Assembly (NCBI GenBank): GCA_047611865.1
Contig: JBLFWS010000043.1
Coordinates: forward strand, 1-21,790
From: Chlamydiales bacterium
Lineage (GTDB): Bacteria; Chlamydiota; Chlamydiia; Chlamydiales; JBDQID01
Direction of reading: 5' to 3'
DNA: 21,790 bases
Shown: positions 1,810 through 21,790 of the stretch, piece after piece
Numbering within the stretch: position 1 is the first letter of the stretch
How the letters are laid out: every line of letters begins with the position of its first letter
The notes under the pieces: model-generated
Database searches by the model: none
Told to the model about the DNA's origin: nothing
What the model saw: the letters and a program-made list of their open reading frames with translations, nothing else
Program-made: the position numbers and the translations under genes

Positions 1810-2952
1810 ATGACAATAGCTCCAATAGCTAACCCTCTTCTACCAAAACTCCTTACACCAGAAGCACCACATAGACAAAACTCCTCAGATATTGGAAGTC
1901 GTATTTATTCCTATCTGTCTACATGCTTTTCCCACAATCGACGTAACTCAGACTCTTCCGAAGAACTAAAGCAAAATCAGCTTCTTACAGATAAAATTCA
2001 TAAGATTGCAAAACAAATTCCAGATGATACCAGCAGCCTAAATAATTCTGAGCGTATACTTAAATTGATCAGTAGCTTCTGCCAAGACTTATTGATAAAT
2101 AAAAACGGCATCCCCCTAAACTTTGATAGCAACCTCGTTCTCAACGCCCAAAAAAGCCTAAGTACAAGCACAAATGAAATCGATAAACTTGCAGCTGCAG
2201 ATTTTCTCAATGAATTCAGTCAGATAAAGGCTACATTTACCAATCAACCTGTTGCCGACAAATCTCCCGATAAAAGAATCATAAAAGCTAAGCTATATAA
2301 ATTTGCAAGAGCTCATGATCGCTTCAAAATCGGCCTTGAAACACGACGTGCAATCGAAGAAGGAAAAAAGGCTCTCGCCATGGCAAATTCACACAATCCC
2401 GAACTTGCTGAAAAAGGCCTCGAATTACTCCAGTTAAAACACCCCTTAATCTACAAAAGTATTCTCAAGCCTAGCTACATTTACAGACAATCCCAGATCC
2501 ACAACATGATCCTTGGGGTTCGAGATCATTTAAAACTCTTAAAAAAATCCCCGAAACAAGAACTTAAGTTTCGCGATGCCCTCACCAACAGTGACTCTGA
2601 AGTTTTTTTTACGATTCCAGCCTTAGGAATTCTAAAAACTTTAAACAAATCCCTAAAAATTAATGGAATATCCCTTCGCCATAATAGCTCTTGGGATGAG
2701 AGCACAGACCTCCCAGATTCACTTAAAGATCGTTTTCAGGAGCTCACATCTGCCAAAGAAGAACTCCAGAACTTAATACAAAACAACTCTGTTAAAGCTG
2801 ACGACATCTCCCTTGCCCTTACAGATAAGGAACATCTGCAAAGCAATCCCCAACTCACTAATCTTCGCAACAAGCTCTATTCCATTGCAGTTAAAATGTC
2901 TCAAGAATTTTCCCGAGATTTCGAGGATATACTACAAGAAATCAAAGTGTAG
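1810..2952 (+). CDS. Hypothetical protein (380 aa), probably helical/coiled-coil, possible effector
   Basis: Long ORF with its own promoter. Pro/Ser-rich N-terminus and L/K/E/Q-rich body; no family recognised. Confidence 0.75.
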   Translation: MTIAPIANPLLPKLLTPEAPHRQNSSDIGSRIYSYLSTCFSHNRRNSDSSEELKQNQLLTDKIHKIAKQIPDDTSSLNNSERILKLISSFCQDLLINKNGIPLNFDSNLVLNAQKSLSTSTNEIDKLAAADFLNEFSQIKATFTNQPVADKSPDKRIIKAKLYKFARAHDRFKIGLETRRAIEEGKKALAMANSHNPELAEKGLELLQLKHPLIYKSILKPSYIYRQSQIHNMILGVRDHLKLLKKSPKQELKFRDALTNSDSEVFFTIPALGILKTLNKSLKINGISLRHNSSWDESTDLPDSLKDRFQELTSAKEELQNLIQNNSVKADDISLALTDKEHLQSNPQLTNLRNKLYSIAVKMSQEFSRDFEDILQEIKV

Positions 2953-3066
2953 AAGCTTAAGCCCCCTCCCGCTCAATATGTAAAATTAGTTTTTGAACTT
3001 TATAGACATTCCAGCTATCTTCAAATATAAAGACAGAAGCAAAACACTACAGCAAAGAGCAGAAGT

Positions 3067-4701
3067 ATGGATTCATTTGCGGGTTTTATTGCCGGTTTCG
3101 CGTTCTTCTTGGTTGGTCTAAAGCTTTTTTCTACTAACCTGAATCAAATCACAAGTAAGCGTTTCCGTACTCTTATAACCAGATTCACTCCCAATGATTG
3201 GCTAGCCGGAATGTGGGGAGTGCTACTTAGCCTCCTAACAGCGGGAAATACCGTCCTCACCCCCTGTATTACCGCAGGCTTTGAGTCCGTCCATGCGATA
3301 AATTTTCGAAAGGCCATTCAAATTGTTCTTTGGAGCCGGGTAGGAGCTTGCTTCTTTATCTACTTAGCTGGCTTTAACATTAAGTTACTAGTTCTCATAT
3401 TGATGGGCTTCGCCGGGATCTCTTTCGCCATTAATAAACCCAAACATTATAACAACCTTACGTCTTCAATTTTCAATCTCGGTTTAGTTTTATTCGGAAT
3501 ACAACTGATCAAAGGAAGCTCCAAAGTCCTCATTAAACTCGATTGGTTTCATAATGTTATTGAATATACCCAGCAGTTTCCTGAAATAGCCTTCATTGCA
3601 GGAATTCTTTTCATCCTCGGGGCACAAAGCCTCTTCGGAGCTTTGGTCGTTGCTTTAAGCTTTATTGATTCAGGGATCTTCGACATCCAGCAAGCTATTT
3701 TATTTACTTACGGTGTGTACTTGGGAGAAGCGATTCTAAAAACATTGCACCTGACTTCTTTCAAAGGCATCTTCAAACAAGTCATGTGCCTACTGCCCAT
3801 CATATATTTTGCTACCTTTCTGACGGGTATTCTAACCTATATAGCCAACGCAATGGATTTCCCTTTTATCCAACATTATGCTCATATTTGGGCTTCAAGC
3901 CCAAAACAAGAGTTAGCTCACCTCAACTTTGGCATACATCTGTTCACTGTTTCACTACTGTCTATTGGAGTCTTGGGTGTAGAAGCTTTAGTATATGCGC
4001 TCCTGGGCAAGCCCAAAACAGAAGAAGTTAAGGCAATTGATATCCCCGATGGAATACTCGACGATCCCATCATGACAATGACCCTAATCGAACAGGAAAA
4101 AAATCGATTAATTCATAAGTTTCCTAATTACTTAGAAAATATACGTTCCGGTGAAAGTCAAAAGGAACCACTTACCCACAACAATTTACATTGTTATTTA
4201 AAAGAAAATCTAGAAGACATCCATGATATCTTCAATGAGTTGTTAGAAAGAAGCCACTATCATCCCGAAATAAGTGCTCAACTCCTTCTTGCCATTGAAA
4301 GACAAAATCTCCTCAGCGCTCTGGAAGAAAACCTTTACAACTTCAGCATCACCGTAGACTTTTTAAGAGAACAAACTAAAAGTAACGTAGAATTATCGAA
4401 TAAGTTCCTCAACTTTGCTGAAGCCATGGACGCAACCCTGCTCACCATGATCGATGTTCTGGATGACCCGAAAGAATCTTTCAATTTAGATGCCCTTATG
4501 AAGATCACCTCAGGAAGGGAAGACTTTATGAAAGATATCCGGGAGCAATACTCTAGCCAGCTAGCTATAACAGAAAAAGTCGAACTCATTTCACTAGTCA
4601 ACCTTTTCGAATCGAATATCTGGATCGTCAAAAAAATCGCCAACTCAGTATACGAAGGCGAGTTCATTTTGGAAGAAACTACGGCTAAAGCAGGAGCGTA
4701 A
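3067..4701 (+). CDS. Na+/Pi cotransporter family (NptA/YjbB-like) membrane protein with PhoU-like C-terminal region
   Basis: N-terminal GFAFFLVGLKLFSTNL and internal repeat GLVLFGIQLIKGS, about 310 aa hydrophobic, AHLNF helix, then a soluble helical C-terminus. Length (544 aa) and architecture are typical of the family. Confidence 0.7.
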   Translation: MDSFAGFIAGFAFFLVGLKLFSTNLNQITSKRFRTLITRFTPNDWLAGMWGVLLSLLTAGNTVLTPCITAGFESVHAINFRKAIQIVLWSRVGACFFIYLAGFNIKLLVLILMGFAGISFAINKPKHYNNLTSSIFNLGLVLFGIQLIKGSSKVLIKLDWFHNVIEYTQQFPEIAFIAGILFILGAQSLFGALVVALSFIDSGIFDIQQAILFTYGVYLGEAILKTLHLTSFKGIFKQVMCLLPIIYFATFLTGILTYIANAMDFPFIQHYAHIWASSPKQELAHLNFGIHLFTVSLLSIGVLGVEALVYALLGKPKTEEVKAIDIPDGILDDPIMTMTLIEQEKNRLIHKFPNYLENIRSGESQKEPLTHNNLHCYLKENLEDIHDIFNELLERSHYHPEISAQLLLAIERQNLLSALEENLYNFSITVDFLREQTKSNVELSNKFLNFAEAMDATLLTMIDVLDDPKESFNLDALMKITSGREDFMKDIREQYSSQLAITEKVELISLVNLFESNIWIVKKIANSVYEGEFILEETTAKAGA

Positions 4702-5588: not shown

Positions 5589-5749
5589 GTTAAAGAAGCT
5601 AACAAATTACCCCAAAAGAGAATTATCTTCAAGGCAAATCAGAACTTTAAGCTGTTAATATCGACAGACTAATTAGAAAATTACCTTGTAAAATATACTA
5701 ATTAGATGCATGCTCTTTTTTGCGAATTCTCATTTACACGGAAGTTTTT

Positions 5750-6736
5750 ATGATCCATCTCTTAACATATTTAAATAGATTTAATAGCAAATTTGGCCTT
5801 CCTTTTTTAGCCTATTTTCTCCTTCTCCAGTCTTGCTCATCCATCGAGGATAGCACCGATTCCTCTCAAGCGCGCATCGTCACAAGCATTGCCCCCTACA
5901 AGTATTTTATTGAACGAATTGCCGGAGATTCTGTCACGATCAGCGTTTTGGTCCCTAATGGTGAAAGCCCGCACACCTTTGAGCCCACACCAAAACAAGT
6001 TATACTCGCAAGCCAAGCCAAGGCTTGGTTTCAAGTGGGAGACCCTTTTGAACAAAAAATGTCCATCCCACTAAAGCAAAGCAATCCCGCAATGCTCATC
6101 ATCGACCTACGTGACGGCCTATCCCTAATTCAGGATGAACATCACCATTGCCATGATCACGATTGTCATAATCACAATCATGATAGTCATAATCACAATC
6201 ATGATAGTCATGATCAAACCCATGAAACACATCATGACGGCATGGACGTACACACTTGGTTAAGTCCCAAACTTGCTATGAAACAAGCCAGATCTATCGC
6301 AAAAACTCTTATACAAGTTCTCCCCGAACAAAAAGACAATTTCACCAAAGGTCTTGAAGGGCTACTTGAAGATCTTCATAAATTGGATGACGATATCAAC
6401 GGCATGCTTAGTGAATATCAAGGGCGTACTCTAATGTTTTCCCACTCAGCCTTTACCTATTTCTGTCTTGATTATAAACTTGAACAGTTCGCTATTGAGT
6501 GTGAAGGAAAAGAACCTCACCCCTCATACATCACAAAGACGATGGAAAATGCTAAAAAATCTAAAATCGGAAGTATCTTTCTACAAAAAGAATGCAGCGA
6601 AAAAGGTGGAAAAAGAATCGCAGAGGCCCTTGATCTCAAAACCATATACATTTATCCCTATGCGGAAAACTACCTAGAAAACATGCGTCAGATATCCCTC
6701 GAATTCAGAAGAGAGCTTTCACAACATGCAGAATGA
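5750..6736 (+). CDS. znuA: Zn/Mn ABC transporter substrate-binding lipoprotein (ZnuA/AdcA-like)
   Basis: Lipobox LLQSC; SPHTFEPTP, DVHTWLSP and HSAFTYF metal-ligand motifs; His-rich loop. ATG 5750 preferred over TTG 5720. Confidence 0.9.
   Translation: MIHLLTYLNRFNSKFGLPFLAYFLLLQSCSSIEDSTDSSQARIVTSIAPYKYFIERIAGDSVTISVLVPNGESPHTFEPTPKQVILASQAKAWFQVGDPFEQKMSIPLKQSNPAMLIIDLRDGLSLIQDEHHHCHDHDCHNHNHDSHNHNHDSHDQTHETHHDGMDVHTWLSPKLAMKQARSIAKTLIQVLPEQKDNFTKGLEGLLEDLHKLDDDINGMLSEYQGRTLMFSHSAFTYFCLDYKLEQFAIECEGKEPHPSYITKTMENAKKSKIGSIFLQKECSEKGGKRIAEALDLKTIYIYPYAENYLENMRQISLEFRRELSQHAE
6165..6211 (+). repeat. 21-bp tandem repeat in the His-rich loop
   Basis: GTCATAATCACAATCATGATA twice plus GTCAT, encoding HNHNHDS twice. 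Confidence 0.9.
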
Positions 6737-7460
6737 ACTTCTGGTACATGCTGAAAATTTGTCGTTCCAGTACGGCAAGACACCCATACTGGAAGGTATT
6801 AACCTCAAGGTCGAGAAAGGCCAGTTCGTTGGAATAATAGGCCCCAATGGTGGTGGTAAGACCACACTATTAAAACTCATCCTTGGCTTTCTAAAACCCA
6901 CAAAAGGAAGTATCAAGGTTTTGGGAGAAAGCCCAAAGGCCGCACGAAAAAAAATGTCCTATGTTCCTCAGGCACTACATCGCGACAAAGAGTTCCCCAT
7001 TTCCGTCATCGACGTTGTATTAGGTGGAAAACTTTCAGAATATTCCTGGTTTAGCGGCTATAGCAAGGATGCTATTACTCAAGCTTATAGCTTACTTGAA
7101 AGACTAGAATTAAAAGATCTTGCTCACAGTCCTTTTGGAAATTTATCTGGTGGACAAGCTCAAAAAACACTCATTGCACGAGCCTTGATTTCTGAACCCG
7201 AAATTCTATTGCTTGATGAGCCTACCTCCAGTGTTGATGCAAAATCGGAAAAGGAAATACACGAAATCCTCAGATCCCTCCAAGGACAGATGTCTATCCT
7301 TATGGTAACGCACGATATACGTGCGATTATCGACAACACAAAAAACATCCTTTCTGTGCATCGTAAAGTCGTTACTATGAAGCCAGCAGACGTTTGTGAA
7401 CATTTTGCTCTAGGAGTCTATCACACTCCTCTAATACAAAATTCAAACTCAGAAACCTAA
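6726..7460 (+). CDS. znuC: Metal ABC transporter ATP-binding protein
   Basis: Walker A GPNGGGKTT, signature LSGGQ, Walker B LLLDEP, H-loop VTHD; overlaps the preceding gene. Confidence 0.92.
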   Translation: MQNELLVHAENLSFQYGKTPILEGINLKVEKGQFVGIIGPNGGGKTTLLKLILGFLKPTKGSIKVLGESPKAARKKMSYVPQALHRDKEFPISVIDVVLGGKLSEYSWFSGYSKDAITQAYSLLERLELKDLAHSPFGNLSGGQAQKTLIARALISEPEILLLDEPTSSVDAKSEKEIHEILRSLQGQMSILMVTHDIRAIIDNTKNILSVHRKVVTMKPADVCEHFALGVYHTPLIQNSNSET

Positions 7461-7485
7461 AAGCTACCTTACAGAGATTAAAGCA

Positions 7486-8355
7486 ATGTCGTTTACGCAA
7501 GCCCTATTATCCAATCCTCTTCTTCAGTCTGCTTTATTTGCGGGATTACTCGCCTCATTTGCCAGCGGCATTATTGGTTCATATGTAGTAGTTAAACGAA
7601 TAGTTTTCATCAGCGGTAGCATAGCTCACTCCATTCTAGGTGGCCTAGGCCTATTTCTATGGCTCCAGCGTACTTATGGTCTGGTATGGCTTTCACCTCT
7701 TCACGGAGCCCTCCTTGCCGGTATTCTTGCCGCTATCGCAATTGGATGGATTCACTTAAGGTACCGCCAAAGGGAAGACTCTGTCATAGCTGCATTATGG
7801 TCCACGGGAATGGCTATTGGAGTAATCTTTATATCTATCACTCCTGGCTCCAATGCCGAACTCTCCAATTACCTCATTGGAAATATTCTTTGGGTAAGTA
7901 AAAGCGACCTGTGGATGCTTTTCTCTCTTGATGTCCTCATCATAACTACAGTAGTTTTTCTCTATCAAAAATTATTGATACTTTGTTTCGATGAAGAACA
8001 GGCTCTCATGCAAGGAGTACCCGTAGAAAAGCTATACTACCTTTTACTTGTCCTAGTAGCCATTTCTGTAGTTCTTTTGATGCAAATTGTAGGTATTATC
8101 CTCGTGATCACCATGCTGACTCTACCCGCAACTATTGCCAACCTGTTCACAAAAAAACTATCATACATGATGCTTCTGGCAACTCTTCTAGGCACATGCT
8201 TTTGCTTTATAGGTCTCACTATATCTTATGAATTCGAATGGCCTCCTGGAGCCACCATTGCCCTTTTCGCAGGGGTATGCTATCTCATATCCTTGCTTTC
8301 GATAGAAAGGCGATTCAGATTAAGCAATCGTGAGGCCGATACTCAAGAGATCTAA
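7486..8355 (+). CDS. znuB: Metal ABC transporter permease (ABC-3 family)
   Basis: GSYVVVKRIVFISGSIAHSILGG, YLIGNILWV, FDEEQA..QGV and IVGIILVITMLTLPA motifs. Confidence 0.92.
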   Translation: MSFTQALLSNPLLQSALFAGLLASFASGIIGSYVVVKRIVFISGSIAHSILGGLGLFLWLQRTYGLVWLSPLHGALLAGILAAIAIGWIHLRYRQREDSVIAALWSTGMAIGVIFISITPGSNAELSNYLIGNILWVSKSDLWMLFSLDVLIITTVVFLYQKLLILCFDEEQALMQGVPVEKLYYLLLVLVAISVVLLMQIVGIILVITMLTLPATIANLFTKKLSYMMLLATLLGTCFCFIGLTISYEFEWPPGATIALFAGVCYLISLLSIERRFRLSNREADTQEI

Positions 8356-8374: not shown

Positions 8375-9082
8375 ATGTGTGGCAGATTTACCATCACATC
8401 CGATGGTCCAAGCATTTTAAAGCGCTTTGGCTTAGATCAAAAAGAATTCCCTTTTCACCCCCGCTACAATCTCGCCCCAGGACAAATAGCTCCTGTAATC
8501 ACAAAAAATTCCTCCCGTCAGGTTTTTGCAATGAAATGGGGCCTTGTACCCCATTGGGCAAAAGACCCAAATGTGGGTTTCAAAATGATAAACGCCCGAG
8601 CTGAAACCCTTGCTCAAAAACCTTCATTTCGTCATCCCTTTCGACACAAGCGCTGTCTGATACCAGGTGATAGCTTCTATGAATGGAAAAAAGACCGATC
8701 CACAAACTCTAAAATACCCTTCCGCTTTCATCTCAAAGAACAAAAACTTTTTGCTTTTGCAGGCTTATGGGAAGAATGGATAAACCCGCAAGGGAGTCCC
8801 CTTCAAACCTTTAGTATCGTCACAACTAATGCTAATAGTTTAGTTTCCCCCATACACGATCGCATGCCCGCAATCTTAAATGAGGAAGATGAAAGCATAT
8901 GGTTAGATCATTCAATTGACAATTTAGAAATAATAGGAAGCCTTCTGAAGCCTTATCCTAGGGATCAAATGGACTCTTACAAAGTCTCGCCTCTCGTAAA
9001 CTCCGTAAAGAACGACTCACCTAAATGTTTGGAGACCTCTATAGAACTCTCTCAGGCTGACTTGTTCATGGACTTTCAATAG
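8375..9082 (+). CDS. SRAP family abasic-site-protecting protein (YedK/HMCES-like)
   Basis: N-terminal MCGRF (catalytic Cys2), YNLAP, WGLVP, INARAET, RCLIP...FYEW and IHDRMP motifs. Confidence 0.95.
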   Translation: MCGRFTITSDGPSILKRFGLDQKEFPFHPRYNLAPGQIAPVITKNSSRQVFAMKWGLVPHWAKDPNVGFKMINARAETLAQKPSFRHPFRHKRCLIPGDSFYEWKKDRSTNSKIPFRFHLKEQKLFAFAGLWEEWINPQGSPLQTFSIVTTNANSLVSPIHDRMPAILNEEDESIWLDHSIDNLEIIGSLLKPYPRDQMDSYKVSPLVNSVKNDSPKCLETSIELSQADLFMDFQ

Positions 9083-9436: not shown

Positions 9437-10501
9437 CTACACTGCAGACTTTGCTCGGTCACGAGCAACACGAGATATTTTCTTCCACCCTCCAGAAATC
9501 CCCATCGCGGAGCGCATTTCCTTAAGAGTAGCCTCTGAAGTCTCAATCATTTTATGAGTGCCTTCGTAGATAACCTGCTCTACATAACCCTTATCAGCCT
9601 CAAACTCTTTCCGACGTTCCCGAATAGGATTAAGAAAATTATTCAACGCGATTGCTAACTTATCTTTCACTTCCACATCACCAACAGAACCTTTACGATA
9701 GCGCTCCTTGAGGTCTTCTATTTCTTCATGATTTGGGTTGAATATATCATGATAAATGAACACAGGGTTGCCTTCTACTGTCCCAGGAGTATCTGCACTA
9801 ATCCTTTTGGGATCAGTAAACATCCCCTTAACCTTTTTCTGAACAACTTTCGCATCATCAGAAAGAAAGATCGTATTATTTAATGATTTGCTCATTTTCC
9901 CTTTCCCATCAGTACCGATAAGTGTAGGTACATCACTGAGGAGAACCTCCGGTTCAGGAAAGACTTCACCGTAATATTGGTTGAAACGACGAGCAATACT
10001 TCTTGTCAGCTCAATATGTGCTTCATTATCCTTACCAACAGGAACAAGGTGAGCTCTAGGCATAAGAATGTCGGCAGACTGTAATACAGGATATCCAATC
10101 AAACCAAAGGACATGCTTTCATCATCGATATGAGCGTTTCTTGCCATATCTTTCAAACTCGGCAATCCCGTCAACCTGTTCAACGAAACAAGCATCTCAA
10201 AAATCAGATTCATCTCATAAATTGCAGGCACCGCAGACTGGAGATATATGACGGACTTTTCCGGATCAATACCGCAGGCCAGGTAGTCAAGGACCATATC
10301 TTTTATATTGTCTCTAATCTCAATAATATGCTTTTTCTGCGGCTTTGTAGTAAGCACGTGCAGATCGGCAATTATAAAAGAACAATCGTATTCATCCTGT
10401 AATGCGACTCTATTTTTAAGCGAACCCACATAATGCCCAAGGTGAAGACGCCCTGTAGGGCGATCGCCAGTTAAAATTCGCTTTTTTTCTGTATCTGTCA
10501 T
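9437..10501 (-). CDS. trpS: Tryptophanyl-tRNA synthetase
   Basis: [19 protein letters not shown] (HIGH), [18 protein letters not shown] and KMSKS motifs. Start set at ATG 10501 behind a GAGG SD. Confidence 0.97.
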
Positions 10502-10515
10502 CTTATTCCTCAATA

Positions 10516-11742
10516 CTATTTAATATATTCACTTGCCACGCATTGCAGTAGGCCCATCTTATTCGCTACTTCCAAGACAACTACCCCCGAAAAGAAAGTA
10601 ATCGCCAATACAAGAGAAGTCTTTCCACCCATTACCGTATAAATAGCGGGTTTAGCAGTTTGCTTGCGAACAGACCAAGCCATTAAGGCCGGAAGAATTC
10701 CCAGTAATACAGCGACAAATACCCCTGCATACTCTAGTGCAAGATAGAAGCCTCTTACACCTGTCAGTACAAAGGTCAAAGGCGGTAAAAATGTCAGCAT
10801 GCAAACAGCCAGCTTACCAGAGCTTCCTTTTTTCAAATCCAAAGCATCTGCTATAAAATGAAATAGGCTTAGAGATACCCCCAAAAAAGAAGTCGATATA
10901 GAAAAAAATGCAAAAAATTGCGCGCCAACAGATAGCCATGGACTTTGCAAGCTTGCCCTTAGAGGATCTGTAGCGGGCATATCACCTGACCAAGCCTCCA
11001 AAATGCTATTTGGCCCTTCAAGAGGTACCACTCCCAAGACAAGAAATTCCCAGACAGCGTAAACGCAAAGGGGAATCAGACAACCCACAAAAAGAGATAT
11101 CTTGAGTTTCCTAAGATCTCTATCTAAATAAGTCGTCAAAAAAGGAATTACTACATGAAAACCAAATGAGGTTACGACTACAGACACTGACATTGCAAGA
11201 TAGCTCCAATCTGTATGCTCAAAGTTTTCCATCGTGACGTGAGCTGGAGCAAAACAAACAAGTAAAGAATAGGAAGCTATCAAACCCACCATCAGTAATC
11301 GGTTGAGGTAATCTACAGATTGTGTCCCCAAGTATACCACAAAAGAAAAGAAGCCTAGCACTAACACTGGGGTAAACCATTGGGGCAAGTCAAAACCTAT
11401 CAAATTCTCAATAGCTTCTCCCACAATATGAGAGCTACCTCCTATATAAGCAGCTGTCAATGCGTAGAGTAAAAGAAGATAGCTAATCCCACTCACATAC
11501 TTACCAAAAGAACCCAGCGTACTTTGAGCCATCGAAATAAGATCTGCCTCACCATCCATCCACAAATTCACTTCCAAAAGCAAAAATGCCGTAAAGGTCA
11601 TAAAACCCCAGCTGACGAAAAAGAGAAAAAGAGAAGGATAAAACCCTGCTAAGCCAGTAGAAATAGGTAGTGCAAGCATACCTGCACCAATTGCCGTCCC
11701 GGCAACCAAGAGGATTCCTCCTAACAATCGACTATCATTCAT
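10516..11742 (-). CDS. tyrP: Aromatic amino acid permease (TyrP/Mtr/TnaB family)
   Basis: [29 protein letters not shown] and TSFLGVSL motifs. ATG 11742 is preceded by a GGAG SD. Confidence 0.92.
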
Positions 11743-11757
11743 TGCAATTCTCCACAA

Positions 11758-13005
11758 CTAGGTATAGGTATCTGCTTCGGAAAGAATCGCTGTCCATCCC
11801 ATTTCCTGAAACAGCTTAAAAAATATTACAGCACACGCAAAAATCAACACTGCCAAAAGAGATTTCTTACCTCCAGGAAAGCAACGCTCCGATTCTCCAT
11901 CATCCCGATAACGAGCAGACCACACCATGAGAGGGGGCAGCACACCAAATAACAAGGCGGCGCCGAAGCCTCCAGCATAGTCCAGGGCTGTAAGAAAAAC
12001 CCCTGGGTACGTGAGTGAAATGACAAAAGGAGGTAACATCACAAGCCCGCACAAAAAAACTTTTCCTTCCCCTGTCTTATTTACTTTTAAGCCATCTGCA
12101 AGAAAGTCCACGAAACTTAAAGATACCCCTAGAAAAGAAGTAACCAGCGCAAAAAAAGCAAACGATTGAGCAGCTATAATCAACCATGGACTCTCCAAAA
12201 ACCCTAGCAAAGTCTGCGTTGCCGTCTCTCCCTTCATCAGAGCATGACGAATCCCACCTTCCCCTTCAAGAGGCACTATACCCAAAACGAGTGTTTCCCA
12301 AAAAATATATACGAGCAAGGGAATCGTGCAACCACCAACGATAACCTTTTTCATTTTTTGGCTGTCCCCTTCAAAATAGGCTGTCAAAGTAGGGACTAAC
12401 TGATGAAAACCAAAACCCACAATAGCCACGGGAACAATAAAAGGAGATGCTTCCCAATTGCTGTTTGCCAACAGGTTAGTATCAACTTCCGAGATACCTG
12501 CCGTTATCAAAAAGCAATAGGAACTTACAAGACCAATCATTAGCACTCTATTAAAGTGATCCACTAAACCAGTACCTAGGTAAACACAGGCTCCAAAAAG
12601 CATGACAAAGAAGAGGCTCCCCGCCCAAGGAGCTATACTTTTGCCACTTATCATTTCTACAGAACTCACAAAAAGAGCTCCACTTCCTACAGAATAAGCA
12701 ACCATTACACAGTAGAAAAGAAACAAAAAAGTTCCCCAAGAAATAACTTTTCCGGGAAAACCCAAAGTAAGTTCTGCCATAGTAGCTAAGTTAACATCCT
12801 GTCCATATTTGATATTTAGCTCCAAAATCATCAGGCCTGTGCTTAACATGAAAAGCCAAGTAATAAAGAGCACGAGAATGGAGGGAACGAATCCAGCAAC
12901 TCCAGTAGATATGGGCAGTGCCAGCATCCCAGAGCCAATACAGCATCCCGAAACGAGTAAGATGCCCCCAAATACCTGACCTGTTAAAGAGCGAATATAT
13001 CGCAT
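11758..13005 (-). CDS. tyrP: Aromatic amino acid permease (TyrP/Mtr/TnaB family), second paralog
   Basis: GGILLVSGCCIGSGMLALP, GFGFHQLVP and TSFLGVSL motifs. ATG 13005 preferred; TTG 13017 is possible. Confidence 0.9.
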   Translation of the reverse strand: MRYIRSLTGQVFGGILLVSGCCIGSGMLALPISTGVAGFVPSILVLFITWLFMLSTGLMILELNIKYGQDVNLATMAELTLGFPGKVISWGTFLFLFYCVMVAYSVGSGALFVSSVEMISGKSIAPWAGSLFFVMLFGACVYLGTGLVDHFNRVLMIGLVSSYCFLITAGISEVDTNLLANSNWEASPFIVPVAIVGFGFHQLVPTLTAYFEGDSQKMKKVIVGGCTIPLLVYIFWETLVLGIVPLEGEGGIRHALMKGETATQTLLGFLESPWLIIAAQSFAFFALVTSFLGVSLSFVDFLADGLKVNKTGEGKVFLCGLVMLPPFVISLTYPGVFLTALDYAGGFGAALLFGVLPPLMVWSARYRDDGESERCFPGGKKSLLAVLIFACAVIFFKLFQEMGWTAILSEADTYT

Positions 13006-13111
13006 TATGTGTACCAACAGTTTATTGATCTTTTAATTAAAGCATCCAAGGCAAGGCCATGATTTTATTTACTAGTTTAATGAGCTCGAGAATCGCCAGA
13101 GAGAATACTCT

Positions 13112-13225
13112 CTAGATAAATAAGATGTTGCGATTCCAACTCCACCACAACTTATCCCAAGAAAGGAACAGGGCAGACTGGACATCGTCAAAAAGATCAT
13201 GCTGATGCATATTATGAGCAGACAT
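13112..13225 (-). CDS. Putative Trp-rich leader peptide (TrpL-like), 37 aa
   Basis: Manual translation: MSAHNMHQHDLFDDVQSALFLSWDKLWWSWNRNILFI*. Four TGG codons in eight positions including a WW pair; ends about 105 nt before the tyrP-tyrP-trpS operon on the same strand. Confidence 0.75.
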   Translation of the reverse strand: MSAHNMHQHDLFDDVQSALFLSWDKLWWSWNRNILFI

Positions 13226-13236
13226 TTAAAGACACT

Positions 13237-13245
13237 ACTATAACA
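13237..13245 (-). promoter_or_regulatory. Possible extended -10 promoter for the leader/tyrP operon
   Basis: Minus strand TGtTATAGT, 11 nt upstream of the leader ATG; no clear -35. Confidence 0.35.
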
Positions 13246-13365
13246 AATAAATTAATCCAATGCTAGCACAGCAGCACACAAAAATACAACAGCTAAACAA
13301 CTTACATCTCAAAACTGATTCGAAAGCGACGTTTCGTAATTTTAATACACACCCTGCTATATTTG

Positions 13366-13405
13366 AATAAAAAATAAGCAGTACTGGTGACTGTACTGCT
13401 TATTT
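13366..13405 (-). terminator. Intrinsic terminator of thyX
   Basis: Perfect 13-bp inverted repeat AAATAAGCAGTAC-N8-GTACTGCTTATTT (13372-13405) running into TTTTTTATT on the minus strand, just after the thyX stop. Confidence 0.85.
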
Positions 13406-13411
13406 GAAAAC

Positions 13412-15052
13412 TTAAACGCTCTCTACTTTTTTCCGAGCCGTACGCTCTTCCTGTTGCAGGCGCCCTAATTCATACCCCTCAAAGTCTACAAACTTAAAGA
13501 AACGTTCGAACTCTGGAACACTATCAAAAACAGCTTTTGCCATTTCCTGAGCTACATAACGGTACCCTGGATGACCTGCTGGAGAAGAACGCAGCTCACA
13601 AAGCCACTGCAAGGATCTCAAGTTTACGTGAAAATACCAGCGAATATTGTAAGCCATAGGAACCACATATTGGGCTTCTTCTGGCAACTCATCTTTGATT
13701 GTATCAAACACTTCTTTTGCTTTCATCAGAGCATCATTGTATTCATTAAGTATCTCTGTTCCAGACAGTTCTGCGGGACTATAAAATCCGTAATCACAGG
13801 TAAGTAACTGACGATCCTGAGTGAGAATACGGTGTCGCTGTAAATCTCTATAGATGCCGTAGTCAGCCACTATTTCAAAAGTAAATTCTGCGTGTTCCAA
13901 AGCTCTAGGAGACTTATGGCGACGATTGTCTCTTGAGGAACAAGCTGAATCAAGAATACTCGCTATTTCTTCTTCGGGTAACTCACTACAATGCTTTTGC
14001 AATTCCGGGAGACCTTGATTACTATAAGAGTAAAGAAGGGCCGCTGCTACTTTCATAACTCCTTGAGGATCACTAGAAACCAAACGAACACCAGAAGCTA
14101 GAGATCTTTCAGGAAACTCTTCCTGTTTTGCTGTTACCGCTCGAATTTGCTCTTCCATTGATTCACTAAAGGCCATTCCTGACTTACAGTGCTTGTGGGT
14201 ACTTTCAGATCGTCTGACAAAAGAAGGAATCACCTTTGAAAGCTCTTCGTATGACTTCTTACCAATTTCCTGTAGTTCTGCAAGATTATTGCTATGAAGC
14301 TTCCGTATCATACTTTCAAAGAAACGGCCATTCCCATAAATCCCCATATTTGTCAGGGCACTTGCGGGTAACAGGCCTCGCAGGCAATCTAATACTTTAG
14401 CCCTCAAAGCTGCGGTATAGGCTGCCTTGGATATCTCTTCGGTTCTTGGGAATCTCTCTTCAATGAGCTCTGTTACAGACGGAATCAACTTACTGTAGGT
14501 ATCAAATAACATGTTACAGGTGTCGATGTAAATCTGTCTGTACGCTGAGGTCATAAGAATAGGCTCTTTATAAAAGAGATATTCTCCCTGAATTTTCTGG
14601 TCGAAATAAATATAACGAGTCGATTTTTCCAAAGGAGAGCCACCGATCCGGCAGTCTTCCAAAACCTTTGTAGCAATCATTGATACATTTTCGATAGCGA
14701 GGTGTGCACCTCCTAGCTCTCCAATAGAATCATCACCATATCCATCAAGAATACGGTCATAGAAATTCTGGGCTCTTTTAATCGCAAGCATTTGATCTTG
14801 GGTAGACTCTTTACTTTCAGAACCTGCCCCTACGATGCTTTCGAAAGCAACCTCATCATTAGCTACAAATTCTTTCAGCAATAGAGAGCGTAGTCCCAGT
14901 CGCGAGCGAGAGTAGCGAGAGAACAAAGCCCCTTTAATTACTTCAGGTAAATTACGTAAAGCAAAGATATTACACGAAGTATTGGTGACAAAGCGTTCCA
15001 GAAGATTAATCTGGCTGTCAGTAAATTCCTCGTAACCTTCTTGATGAGTCAT
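13412..15052 (-). CDS. thyX: FAD-dependent thymidylate synthase, long two-domain chlamydial type
   Basis: GALFSRYSR, GYGDDSIGELG, LEKSTRY, RALEH, RDLQRHR and ELRS...GHPGYR motifs; 546 aa. Confidence 0.92.
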   Translation of the reverse strand: MTHQEGYEEFTDSQINLLERFVTNTSCNIFALRNLPEVIKGALFSRYSRSRLGLRSLLLKEFVANDEVAFESIVGAGSESKESTQDQMLAIKRAQNFYDRILDGYGDDSIGELGGAHLAIENVSMIATKVLEDCRIGGSPLEKSTRYIYFDQKIQGEYLFYKEPILMTSAYRQIYIDTCNMLFDTYSKLIPSVTELIEERFPRTEEISKAAYTAALRAKVLDCLRGLLPASALTNMGIYGNGRFFESMIRKLHSNNLAELQEIGKKSYEELSKVIPSFVRRSESTHKHCKSGMAFSESMEEQIRAVTAKQEEFPERSLASGVRLVSSDPQGVMKVAAALLYSYSNQGLPELQKHCSELPEEEIASILDSACSSRDNRRHKSPRALEHAEFTFEIVADYGIYRDLQRHRILTQDRQLLTCDYGFYSPAELSGTEILNEYNDALMKAKEVFDTIKDELPEEAQYVVPMAYNIRWYFHVNLRSLQWLCELRSSPAGHPGYRYVAQEMAKAVFDSVPEFERFFKFVDFEGYELGRLQQEERTARKKVESV

Positions 15053-16078: not shown

Positions 16079-16975
16079 ATGACAACAAATATCTCTGATA
16101 GCCAACTTCTTGAGTTTAACAAGCAAGGTTTTATTCCTGGCCCAAACGAACAAAGCTATCACTTTTTATCCAGAGTGAAGGATTCTTTGCATTTTGCTAA
16201 CAATATCGATGAATACCTGGAGAGTTCTGAAGAACTCTTTCCCTTTCGTGCTGAAGACAAAATCCCTACTCAAGAAAAAGAATCCGCCTTTCACATATGC
16301 AAAACTTTGTTTGATATGGCCCCTAGCTGGGTACCTGCTTTCTACAACAACCACGATCTTTCCGTATGGCATGGTGGCAGCTCATGGATTCCTGAGGTAA
16401 ATGAAGGCTCCCCCATAATCTTTTTCCAGCTTCGGAAAGCTTTTAAAGCTTCTTCAACTTACTTGTGGATTTATCAACGTAATGAGATCCTTTCTCATGA
16501 AGCCGTCCATGTTGGCCGAATGGCTTTTCATGAACCTGAATTCGAAGAAATTCTAGCTTACCGAACGAGTAGCTCTCCATTGAGACGGCTTCTTGGGCCC
16601 ATTATACAATCTCCCGAAGAAACTATGGCATTTGCTCTTATTATCTCCTTTATTGTCGCCCTCGACTACTTTCTTCTCTTTACCCAAAATTTTTCTCTCT
16701 ACGCTACAGCAATGTGGCTAAAACTTATTCCTCTTTTTCTAATCCTTTATGGTCTATGGCGTATCTGGAAGCTCCACCGTGTTTTTGAAAAATGCCTCGA
16801 AAATCTCGAAGCACTCTTGTCAAGCAAAGACAAAGCCAACGCTGTAATTTATCGCCTTACCGATAAGGAAATCTATCGATTCTCCGAAGATCTTTCACCA
16901 ACAATCCTACAATATGCTCATGAGAATAAATCTAGGTCTCTGCGTTGGAGACTTCTCAATATAGCCTATTTCTAA
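16079..16975 (+). CDS. Hypothetical membrane protein with HExxH motif (possible zinc metallopeptidase)
   Basis: 298-aa ORF; ILSHEAVHVGRMAFHEPEFEE; two hydrophobic segments in the C-terminal half. Confidence 0.75.
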   Translation: MTTNISDSQLLEFNKQGFIPGPNEQSYHFLSRVKDSLHFANNIDEYLESSEELFPFRAEDKIPTQEKESAFHICKTLFDMAPSWVPAFYNNHDLSVWHGGSSWIPEVNEGSPIIFFQLRKAFKASSTYLWIYQRNEILSHEAVHVGRMAFHEPEFEEILAYRTSSSPLRRLLGPIIQSPEETMAFALIISFIVALDYFLLFTQNFSLYATAMWLKLIPLFLILYGLWRIWKLHRVFEKCLENLEALLSSKDKANAVIYRLTDKEIYRFSEDLSPTILQYAHENKSRSLRWRLLNIAYF

Positions 16976-21140: not shown

Positions 21141-21790
21141 ATGTCAAGTATTGTTACACGTCACCAGGAACAGCTTTTTGAACTCTCACAAGAACCTAGC
21201 CGCAAGCGAGGAAGAGAGGAAACAGAAGAAAGATACGATGGCCTAAAACTAACTCCTGAAGACATTGCCAAGGCAATGGGGGTACCCCAAGCAGAGAGCG
21301 ATACAGAAGAATATCTGCTAGAGCCAAGCAAGAAAAGGGTTAAACCAAACGAGAGTGAAGAAACTGTGCAACGCTACTCCAGGGTAAGGTCTGGAATGCT
21401 AGAAGCACCCATTGAAATGACCAGAGATAAAGCCATTCAACTCTTAATGCAAGAGCGCAATGAATTCATTAAAGAGCTCATCGAAGATGGTTCCATAGTA
21501 CTTCCTGAAGTCGAAGATGCGGAAATGAGCGAAGCAACAGATGCCAAACTCACAAAAAAGCAAGCTAACAAAATCCTCGATATAGCCACTACAAAATCAC
21601 TAAAACTCTCCCAGCAAGTGAACGATTTTTTCAGCTTGTTCTCCACTTTGGGTCCCAAGCACCGCGCATCAAAAGAAACTATTCTTAACTTTGTTTTTTC
21701 TTACATTGAACAAATGCCCGACAAAGTGACGGAAAATAAGTACATAGAAGCTGCTAATGAACATGCTCAAATACTTTTTGCAGAGAACGA
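21141..21790 (+). CDS. Hypothetical protein, 3'-truncated by the window, with two NLS-like motifs
   Basis: Open from ATG 21141 to the window end (at least 216 codons) with a strong GGGAGG SD. Begins MSSIVTRHQEQLFELSQEPSRKRGREETEE...LLEPSKKRVKPNESEE. Missing from the ORF track because it has no stop in the window. Confidence 0.85.
   Translation, partial: MSSIVTRHQEQLFELSQEPSRKRGREETEERYDGLKLTPEDIAKAMGVPQAESDTEEYLLEPSKKRVKPNESEETVQRYSRVRSGMLEAPIEMTRDKAIQLLMQERNEFIKELIEDGSIVLPEVEDAEMSEATDAKLTKKQANKILDIATTKSLKLSQQVNDFFSLFSTLGPKHRASKETILNFVFSYIEQMPDKVTENKYIEAANEHAQILFAEN

Follow-up and report, generated by a model that had tools for sequence, protein, structure and literature searches.

The window analyzed here is a stretch of 21,790 nucleotides (nt) from an environmental chlamydia (Chlamydiales bacterium, assembly GCA_047611865.1, contig JBLFWS010000043.1). 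Our subject is a 37-codon open reading frame (ORF) within it that probably encodes a regulatory leader peptide for a tyrP-tyrP-trpS operon. All genes of this locus lie on the minus strand. The first gene that would be regulated, tyrP1 (positions 11758 to 13005), encodes an aromatic amino acid permease that scored 305.6 bits against TIGR00837 and was also matched by TyrP, Mtr, and TnaB family models. It is abutted by a tandem paralogue, tyrP2 (10516 to 11757; 312.7 bits against TIGR00837), and the TnaB model gave the two permeases 109 to 128 bits, which is under the cut-off of that model. The third gene, trpS (9437 to 10513), encodes a tryptophan (Trp)-tRNA ligase that scored 313.9 bits against TIGR00233 (cut-off, 176.75 bits) and only 44.2 bits against the tyrS model. 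Because the tyrP1/tyrP2 and tyrP2/trpS junctions measure 0 and 2 nt, we regard tyrP-tyrP-trpS as a single operon. Upstream of it, and outside the putative switch, lies thyX (13412 to 15052; 546 residues), identified by TIGR02170 and by Pfam Thy1 over residues 327 to 514. The intrinsic terminator of thyX (13372 to 13405, minus strand; 13 pairs followed by the T run TTTATTCAAA) is the sole terminator-like site within positions 12900 to 13500 and separates the leader transcript from thyX. The family models and the terminator scan thus bore out the placement given in the original prediction, which had put the ORF between the thyX terminator and two aromatic permease genes followed by a gene for TrpRS.

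The ORF occupies positions 13112 to 13225 of the minus strand, within the 406-nt region between thyX and tyrP1, and consists of 37 codons and a TAG stop codon with the translation MSAHNMHQHDLFDDVQSALFLSWDKLWWSWNRNILFI. Retranslation gave a peptide identical to that first reported, with TGG codons at 13159-13157, 13147-13145, 13144-13142, and 13138-13136, corresponding to residues 23, 27, 28, and 30. The peptide contains four Trp and three phenylalanine (Phe) residues and ends NRNILFI-stop, with no proline (Pro) before the stop codon. We compared this cluster with dinucleotide shuffles of the 406-nt intergenic region, counting Trp per 8 residues in ORFs of at least 15 codons that began with ATG, GTG, or TTG. 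Only 1 of 5,000 shuffles contained 4 Trp in 8 residues, and 24 of 5,000 contained 3, while the antisense strand of the same region reached a maximum of 1. Over all six frames of the window, at least 3 Trp in 8 residues occurred at four places, with the leader alone reaching 4. These counts confirmed that the Trp cluster is real and is no chance product of composition. A search of the peptide against 1.84 billion representative proteins returned two matches only, both to long, unrelated tandem-repeat proteins; since there was no self-match, the ORF has not been called as a gene in that collection.

We observed two overlapping -10-like hexamers in TATAGTAGTGT (13232 to 13242, minus strand), TATAGT at 11 nt and TAGTGT at 6 nt before the leader ATG, and these suggest a near-leaderless leader mRNA. 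An alternative promoter-like sequence, TTCAAA-17-TAAAAT (13339 to 13367, minus strand), lies about 105 nt before the ATG and matches 9 of 12 sigma-70 positions. This sequence is the only sigma-70-like match in the region, but shuffles average 1.6 such sites, making it weak evidence for a promoter. The 3' part of the ORF is predicted to fold into a two-tier hairpin (13082 to 13142, minus strand). The outer 5' arm of this hairpin (13142-13130) consists of the W28 to R32 codons, whereas the TAG stop codon (13114-13112) forms the beginning of its inner stem (13114-13097). The predicted fold has a free energy of -22.1 kcal/mol and a z score of -1.91 when 73 nt are folded (9 of 200 shuffles were as good), with a z score of -3.5 for 71 nt. 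A 106-nt spacer (13006 to 13111, minus strand) separates the leader stop codon from the start of tyrP1.

Two other features of this region were observed. A 7-codon mini-ORF (ATG ... TGG ... TAA) with one Trp codon and no obvious ribosome-binding site is present in the spacer at 13060-13037 of the minus strand and may be due to chance. We also found a predicted long-range helix between approximately 13212-13183 (leader codons 5 to 14) and approximately 13045-13007 of the minus strand, in the 40 nt before the tyrP1 start. This helix holds a perfect 9-bp match, UGAUCUUUU/AAAAGAUCA, and encloses the whole Trp hairpin.

For comparison, we fetched 80 related loci from genome contigs, with an alignment of 38 of the 120 TyrP homologues among the matches listed. 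This set leaves out the genomes whose TyrP proteins are 77 to 88% identical to that of the window, cultured Parachlamydiales, Simkania, and Chlamydiaceae. The nearest TyrP relatives are 88, 84, and 77% identical. Within species-representative genomes, TyrP identity is 52% for the best matches, which come from assemblies labelled Parachlamydiaceae, Waddliaceae, or Chlamydiae. For TrpS, identity to the window protein reaches 84% at locus L019 and is 79 to 80% at L009, L014, and L016. The common gene order proved to be tyrP-tyrP-trpS or tyrP-trpS, with trpS downstream at 48 of the 80 loci and thyX often upstream. Two architectures were apparent, one with a spacer before tyrP and the other, at about two dozen loci, with the thyX stop codon overlapping or abutting the tyrP start codon. 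The spacer was shorter than 140 nt at 19 of the 22 loci without trpS.

The overlap loci (L041, L044, L049 to L053, L055, L056, L058, L059, L064, L067 to L069, L071 to L073, L075, and L077 to L079, near locus position 4480-4510) occur, for example, in assemblies labelled Rhabdochlamydiaceae and Anoxychlamydiales. They have spacers of -8 to +5 nt, no leader, and no trpS downstream where the sequence is long enough. This arrangement seems to be another mode of tyrP expression, coupled to thyX.

Short ORFs with clustered Trp codons were enriched before tyrP in these relatives. Of the 81 sequences (the 80 loci and the window), 38 have 140 nt or more before the first tyrP. In 14 of these 38, the sense strand contains a short ORF with two or more Trp within 10 residues, and in 3 the antisense strand does, compared with a mean of 2.2 and a maximum of 6 in 200 shuffles. 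The difference was larger for short ORFs containing WW, which 11 of the 38 carry on the sense strand and none on the opposite strand; here the shuffles averaged 0.3, with 3 at most. We identified a leader at 25 of the 80 loci. These leaders start with ATG, span 15 to 30 codons, are rich in Phe, and end in W or WW followed by 1 to 7 further codons, as in MKKQTHFHFFFRFWWPTGH (L009), MDNKYITTSTSHFFFWWR (L013), MRSHLFFFFSYCRFFWC (L034), and MQTTSLLNIVFFFGFGRFWP (L002). Downstream of these 25 leaders, trpS was present at 22 loci and absent from 1, with 2 loci cut off, and conversely a leader was found at just 1 of the 22 loci demonstrably lacking trpS. L009 has the order thyX-leader-tyrP-tyrP-trpS as in the window, and L016 likewise, leader included. 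Thus, a short ORF with clustered TGG codons does recur upstream of tyrP and trpS in other Chlamydiae, as the original prediction had anticipated, and absence from orthologous loci was not what we saw.

Individual loci showed variations on this pattern. L046 carries three tyrP copies (one at 2111-3298), and its leader (4363-4425) precedes the second copy, i.e., the trpS-adjacent pair, not the first copy after thyX. At approximately 4350-4404 of L010, 78 nt before tyrP, a short ORF ends SSISSWWP-stop; it is Trp-weighted and Phe-poor like that of the window, and later screens missed it as part of a TTG-started frame of more than 70 codons. L006 (4336-4422) and L021 (4361-4441), both with trpS and a long spacer, contain short ORFs rich in Phe and tyrosine (Tyr) without Trp, one of them including FYHYFFF, and these may be Phe/Tyr-only versions of the leader.

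The 26 leaders, now counting that of the window, share an anatomy in which the Trp codons, the stop codon, and a hairpin are interlocked. The last in-frame UGG was paired in the 5' arm of a local hairpin in all 26 leaders, and the stop codon lay within the hairpin span in 16. The local folds had a mean z score of -2.38, with z below -1.5 in 20 of 26. The last Trp codon lies 2 to 8 codons from the stop codon, which in turn lies 53 to 142 nt from tyrP. In 13 sequences that aligned without gaps, a 6-pair stem was 88.5% paired, compared with 17 to 44% for slid registers. Changes on both sides were seen at three of the six pairs, with a covariation score of 0.209 versus 0.105 that was reached by 3 of 500 shuffles; the three central pairs are invariant and hence uninformative on covariation. 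A covariance model built from these 13 sequences (R1, Parachlamydiales tyrP leader motif) describes a U-rich tract, UGG, and a UGGC(C)/(G)GCCA hairpin. When this model was run over the window and the 80 loci (722,619 bases), its top 20 hits all fell just upstream of tyrP1 on the tyrP strand, and 7 of these 20 lay outside the training set.

An alternative is that the element is an untranslated RNA or DNA signal, composed of a U-rich tract and a GC hairpin or palindrome such as a protein-binding site or operator, with the Phe and Trp codons as by-products of U-richness and of the UGGC/GCCA stem. The stem does comprise the most conserved nucleotides, with columns 32 to 34 and 41 to 43 invariant in alignment A3; several stems are perfect DNA palindromes; and the peptides, 15 to 37 residues long, are unconserved apart from F and W. 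However, an ATG 8 to 40 codons upstream and a stop codon within 9 codons were found in the TGG frame for 25 of 25 anchors; the two remaining frames gave 1 of 25 and 0 of 25. Some circularity attaches to this count, since most anchors came out of an ORF screen; the three anchors found by motif only (L002, L017, and L046) all passed the same test. The codons themselves also follow the frame, as TTT and TTC occur 112 times in frame versus 68 and 74 times in the other two frames of the 26 leaders, and the 543 residues encoded contain 20.6% Phe and 7.2% Trp. Moreover, in 19 of 26 leaders a TANNNT hexamer precedes the ATG by 6 to 8 nt, whereas 36 displaced positions gave 1.5 on average and 5 at most; each ATG was picked without reference to the hexamer. 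The spacing between the UGGC and GCCA halves varies (4, 6, 7, or 8 nt), which suits an RNA hairpin and not a dimeric operator, and a DNA operator or palindrome was rejected on this ground. Finally, the window retains the ORF and its Trp codons without the conserved stem sequence. We consider an untranslated signal unlikely. The comparison shows conservation of a short ORF whose aromatic codons come in runs and which lies at the operon transcript's 5' end, and this ORF is apparently translated. The position of TANNNT implies a promoter situated right at the short ORF and, by this sequence criterion, near-leaderless mRNAs.

If the ORF encodes a leader peptide, the codons may be read in two opposite ways. 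TnaC responds to free Trp by way of a conserved arrest sequence, in which the stop codon directly follows Pro, and induces its genes at high Trp, whereas the consecutive codon runs of pheA, pheST, and trp leaders serve to sense starvation. In a TnaC-like mechanism, free Trp would stall the ribosome near the stop codon and block Rho, so that the permeases would be induced when Trp is abundant. Several observations are compatible with such an arrest peptide, including downstream permeases that belong to the TyrP/Mtr/TnaB family, Trp residues 2 to 8 codons from the stop codon, a Pro-stop ending in 4 of the 25 leaders of relatives (L002, L031, L066, and L010), and a G-poor spacer in the relatives. 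In contrast, the runs of three to five Phe codons together with tandem Trp codons are a signature of starvation sensing, and conservation restricted to F and W is at odds with the conserved sequence that arrest peptides require. The cotranscription of trpS makes sense under limiting charging, and the window peptide, ending ILFI-stop, has no Pro before the stop codon. Free-Trp arrest is thus quite unlikely, and the codon runs, in the absence of a conserved peptide sequence, point to starvation sensing instead. The leaders do resemble E. coli tnaC-tnaAB in layout, with a short Trp-containing leader, a spacer, and a TnaB-family permease, and we similarly favor, as a conjecture, Rho termination in the spacer.

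Taken together, these analyses lead us to conclude that the window ORF is probably the regulatory leader peptide of tyrP-tyrP-trpS and a Trp-weighted member of an aromatic (Phe/Trp) leader family in Parachlamydiales-like chlamydiae. In the mechanism that we propose, transcription would start a few nucleotides before the leader ATG, as the -10-like hexamers suggest, and a ribosome would translate the leader. When charged tRNA-Trp is scarce (and in the relatives tRNA-Phe too), the ribosome would stall on UGG (and in the relatives on UUY). Folding showed that the UGG codons form the 5' arm of the hairpin that also contains the stop codon. A stalled ribosome would hold this hairpin open and cover the start of the spacer, allowing transcription, translation, or both to go on into tyrP-tyrP-trpS. 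When charged tRNA-Trp is plentiful, the ribosome would reach the stop codon and leave, the hairpin would refold with the untranslated spacer exposed, and downstream expression would fall. Our preferred guess for this lowering step is Rho-dependent termination on the G-poor spacer, and it is the weakest part of the model.

The original prediction had proposed a Trp-starvation switch that controls uptake and charging together. The conserved leader before tyrP and trpS supports control of these two functions, but the restriction to Trp did not survive the comparison, since the leaders of the relatives are Phe-rich with one or two Trp. By this codon content, the family is predicted to sense aromatic amino acids and not Trp alone. 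From its Trp weighting, we read the window ORF as a positional equivalent shifted from Phe and Trp to mainly Trp, and thus as an atypical member of the family.

Three candidates for the output step were considered. Intrinsic termination was not supported in the window, where no terminator-like site was found, and is possible only in relatives with U-rich tails. Specific control through an anti-Shine-Dalgarno sequence, in the manner of ermC, was suggested by minimum-free-energy folds and appeared at first to be supported by a pairing probability of 0.39 between the leader and the tyrP ribosome-binding site, versus 0.27 for shuffled ORFs, with 20 of 26 leaders above the shuffle mean. The pairing was not specific when set against the sites of other genes, as the leader duplex energy was -12.18 kcal/mol for the tyrP1 site versus -12.21 kcal/mol for the others, with 84 of 156 controls equal or better, and masking of ribosomes in the window (see below) also lent this candidate no support. 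Searches of Rfam 15, which includes amino acid leader families and the T-box, gave no relevant match at E values up to 10 for positions 12700 to 13700 of the window and only a tRNA at gathering score for six relatives; a T-box was rejected on this basis. The spacer has more C than G in 25 of 26 leaders, and the pooled spacers of the relatives (C, 0.21; G, 0.12; T, 0.38; compared with C, 0.19, and G, 0.18, further upstream) are compatible with Rho loading. We rank Rho or ribosome occlusion first among possible output steps, with low confidence.

A number of results weigh against the leader peptide interpretation, the first group of which concerns how the signal would be passed on. Two scans detected no terminator-like site between the leader and tyrP in the window (13111-13006). 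Among the 26 leaders, such a site was found in 7 (shuffle mean, 1.6; maximum, 5), and each time it coincided with the W hairpin, followed by a modest tail rich in T. We saw no alternative antiterminator pairing and only one conserved hairpin, the 3' arm of which has no antiterminator partner because the spacer is G-poor. Furthermore, the Trp codons and the stop codon share this single hairpin, which a ribosome would open from either position, and geometry alone leaves the discrimination between starved and replete states unexplained. With a stalled ribosome masked at W23, W27, W28, W30, or the stop codon in the window, the accessibility of the tyrP ribosome-binding site was 0.46 throughout. 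The second group concerns the extent of the family and the place of the window in it. No leader was found at 8 loci with trpS and a long spacer or at 17 others where trpS is present and the spacer falls short of 140 nt. When the criterion was relaxed to 4 or more aromatic residues among the 12 preceding a Trp, the 55 loci that remained yielded one unconvincing match, L065. In the window, the full 246-nt leader is no more stably folded than its shuffles (z = -1.38), G is not scarce in the spacer (C, 0.18; G, 0.17), the peptide is unalignable with those of the relatives beyond WW, and the sequence is absent from the 56 hits of model R1 at E values up to 10.

The divergence of the window might instead indicate that its ORF is a chance or decaying frame without function in a lineage that has lost the canonical leader of its relatives. 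The failure of model R1 to find the window, the unalignable peptide, and an intergenic spacer of 406 nt, which is longer than most, are all in accord with this possibility. Yet a cluster of 4 Trp in 8 residues arose in only 1 of the 5,000 shuffles, and the window shares the architecture of the family, with TAGTGT 6 nt before the ATG as the family -10 element is placed, a UGG codon paired in the hairpin, and the stop codon enclosed by it. Its distances also fall within the family range, with 8 codons separating the last Trp and the stop codon (family, 2 to 8) and 106 nt separating the stop codon and tyrP (family, 53 to 142). A nonfunctional frame is quite improbable on these observations. Aromatic-rich small peptides do occur beside transporter genes in other bacteria and the position of the ORF is conserved, but a functional small hydrophobic or aromatic peptide, such as a membrane-associated partner of the permease, is very improbable given lengths of 15 to 37 residues, a sequence unconserved except in codon identity, the lack of any resembling predicted protein among the 1.84 billion representatives, and the many leaders that lack a membrane-spanning length of hydrophobic residues.

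The leader peptide interpretation thus stands as our preferred one, and it may be set beside known systems. In E. coli trpL, a 1:2 structure has the Trp codons in its 5' arm and encloses the stop codon. The window ORF is similarly short, with tandem Trp codons near its end in the 5' arm of a hairpin containing the stop codon, and charged tRNA-Trp would likewise be sensed through ribosome position. In contrast to trpL, there is no 3:4 terminator and no 2:3 antiterminator, the mRNA appears near-leaderless, and import and tRNA charging would be controlled instead of biosynthesis. Of the features of a TrpL-type leader, to which the original prediction likened the element, the ORF with its clustered Trp codons, the 1:2-like hairpin, and the conservation are present, whereas the terminator and the antiterminator pairing are both missing, and for that reason we file the element as a variant of leader peptide control outside the TrpL family. 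The leaders of the relatives also resemble gammaproteobacterial pheA and pheST leaders, peptides of some 15 residues that are encoded in part by consecutive Phe codons. Somewhat tentatively, and from sequence comparison, we suggest that these may constitute an undescribed class of near-leaderless, single-hairpin leaders that read the charging of both tRNA-Phe and tRNA-Trp and control aromatic amino acid import and TrpRS without a terminator/antiterminator pair, acting via Rho or another form of ribosome occlusion, with the lineage of the window retuned to mainly Trp.

Aminoacyl-tRNA synthetase genes have been placed under leader peptide control before, as attenuators of the classical type have been predicted upstream of trpS in Streptomyces and pheST is cited in the same context (PMC1262725). 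The chlamydial leaders share this target with the Streptomyces trpS attenuators and pheST; they differ from these and from pheA in combining Phe and Trp codons, in having permease genes first, in lacking a classical terminator, and in belonging to the phylum Chlamydiota. Within this phylum, candidate trpL peptides have been described for the trpR-trpB spacer only, in Chlamydia trachomatis and C. felis, as far as the accessible text of the study extends (PMC3937554). The C. trachomatis trpL has 59 residues with nonconsecutive Trp and is regarded as unvalidated and a poor attenuator in another study (PMC7755916). The same study describes a WWW motif in YtgCR that is situated within a protein-coding gene and works in trans by way of YtgR, as well as Trp-codon-dependent polarity mediated by Rho in C. 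trachomatis (PMC7755916), and a Rho-based output step would be consistent with this reported role. Our leaders would share Trp-codon-based sensing with the putative trpL of C. trachomatis and C. felis and with the YtgCR WWW motif in the same phylum, although the trpL candidates relate to the trp salvage operon. The full-text literature searched, including the accessible parts of PMC4916741, PMC4833913, and PMC2965389, contained nothing on a chlamydial tyrP or trpS leader, and with Rfam 15 also holding no prior description, the arrangement appears to be undescribed, as had been surmised at the outset.

Tandem group C tyrP genes near uvrB are described as 'adjacent to tyrS' in PMC3937554. By family model and tblastn, the synthetase gene beside tyrP is trpS and not tyrS in the window and at 48 of the 80 loci, and the published label may be a slip. 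Elsewhere in the window, plus-strand genes at 5720-8355 form a ytgABC-like metal uptake operon (ZnuA, ABC ATPase, and permease), followed by an SRAP peptidase gene (8375-9082, plus strand). The permease of this operon (289 residues) was matched by permease models alone; in C. trachomatis, the corresponding permease is fused to the repressor YtgR, according to PMC7755916. The N-terminal 320 residues of the window ThyX matched no Pfam family at E values up to 1e-5, and the ThyX proteins of relatives align over the full length. Four plus-strand ORFs encoding 216 to 380 residues (595-1638, 1810-2952, 16079-16975, and 21141-21788) also had no Pfam match at E values up to 1e-5, and that at 16079-16975 had no NCBIfam match either.

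Tryptophan supply is central to chlamydial biology, and pathogenic members of the phylum are controlled by host depletion of Trp. PMC7755916 presents C. trachomatis as having no validated TrpL-type attenuation and as using a trans-acting substitute. If our interpretation is correct, the phylum does use cis-acting ribosome sensing, and the leaders described here would be its first cis-acting sensor of Trp starvation. The leaders raise the questions of how a single hairpin would discriminate starved from replete states, whether Rho is involved, and whether leaderless translation is part of the sensor. The leader family also provides a practical marker for annotating unannotated short ORFs in related chlamydial assemblies. 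Finally, the regulated function would be the uptake of aromatic amino acids and the charging of tRNA, which would fit the biology of auxotrophic intracellular bacteria.

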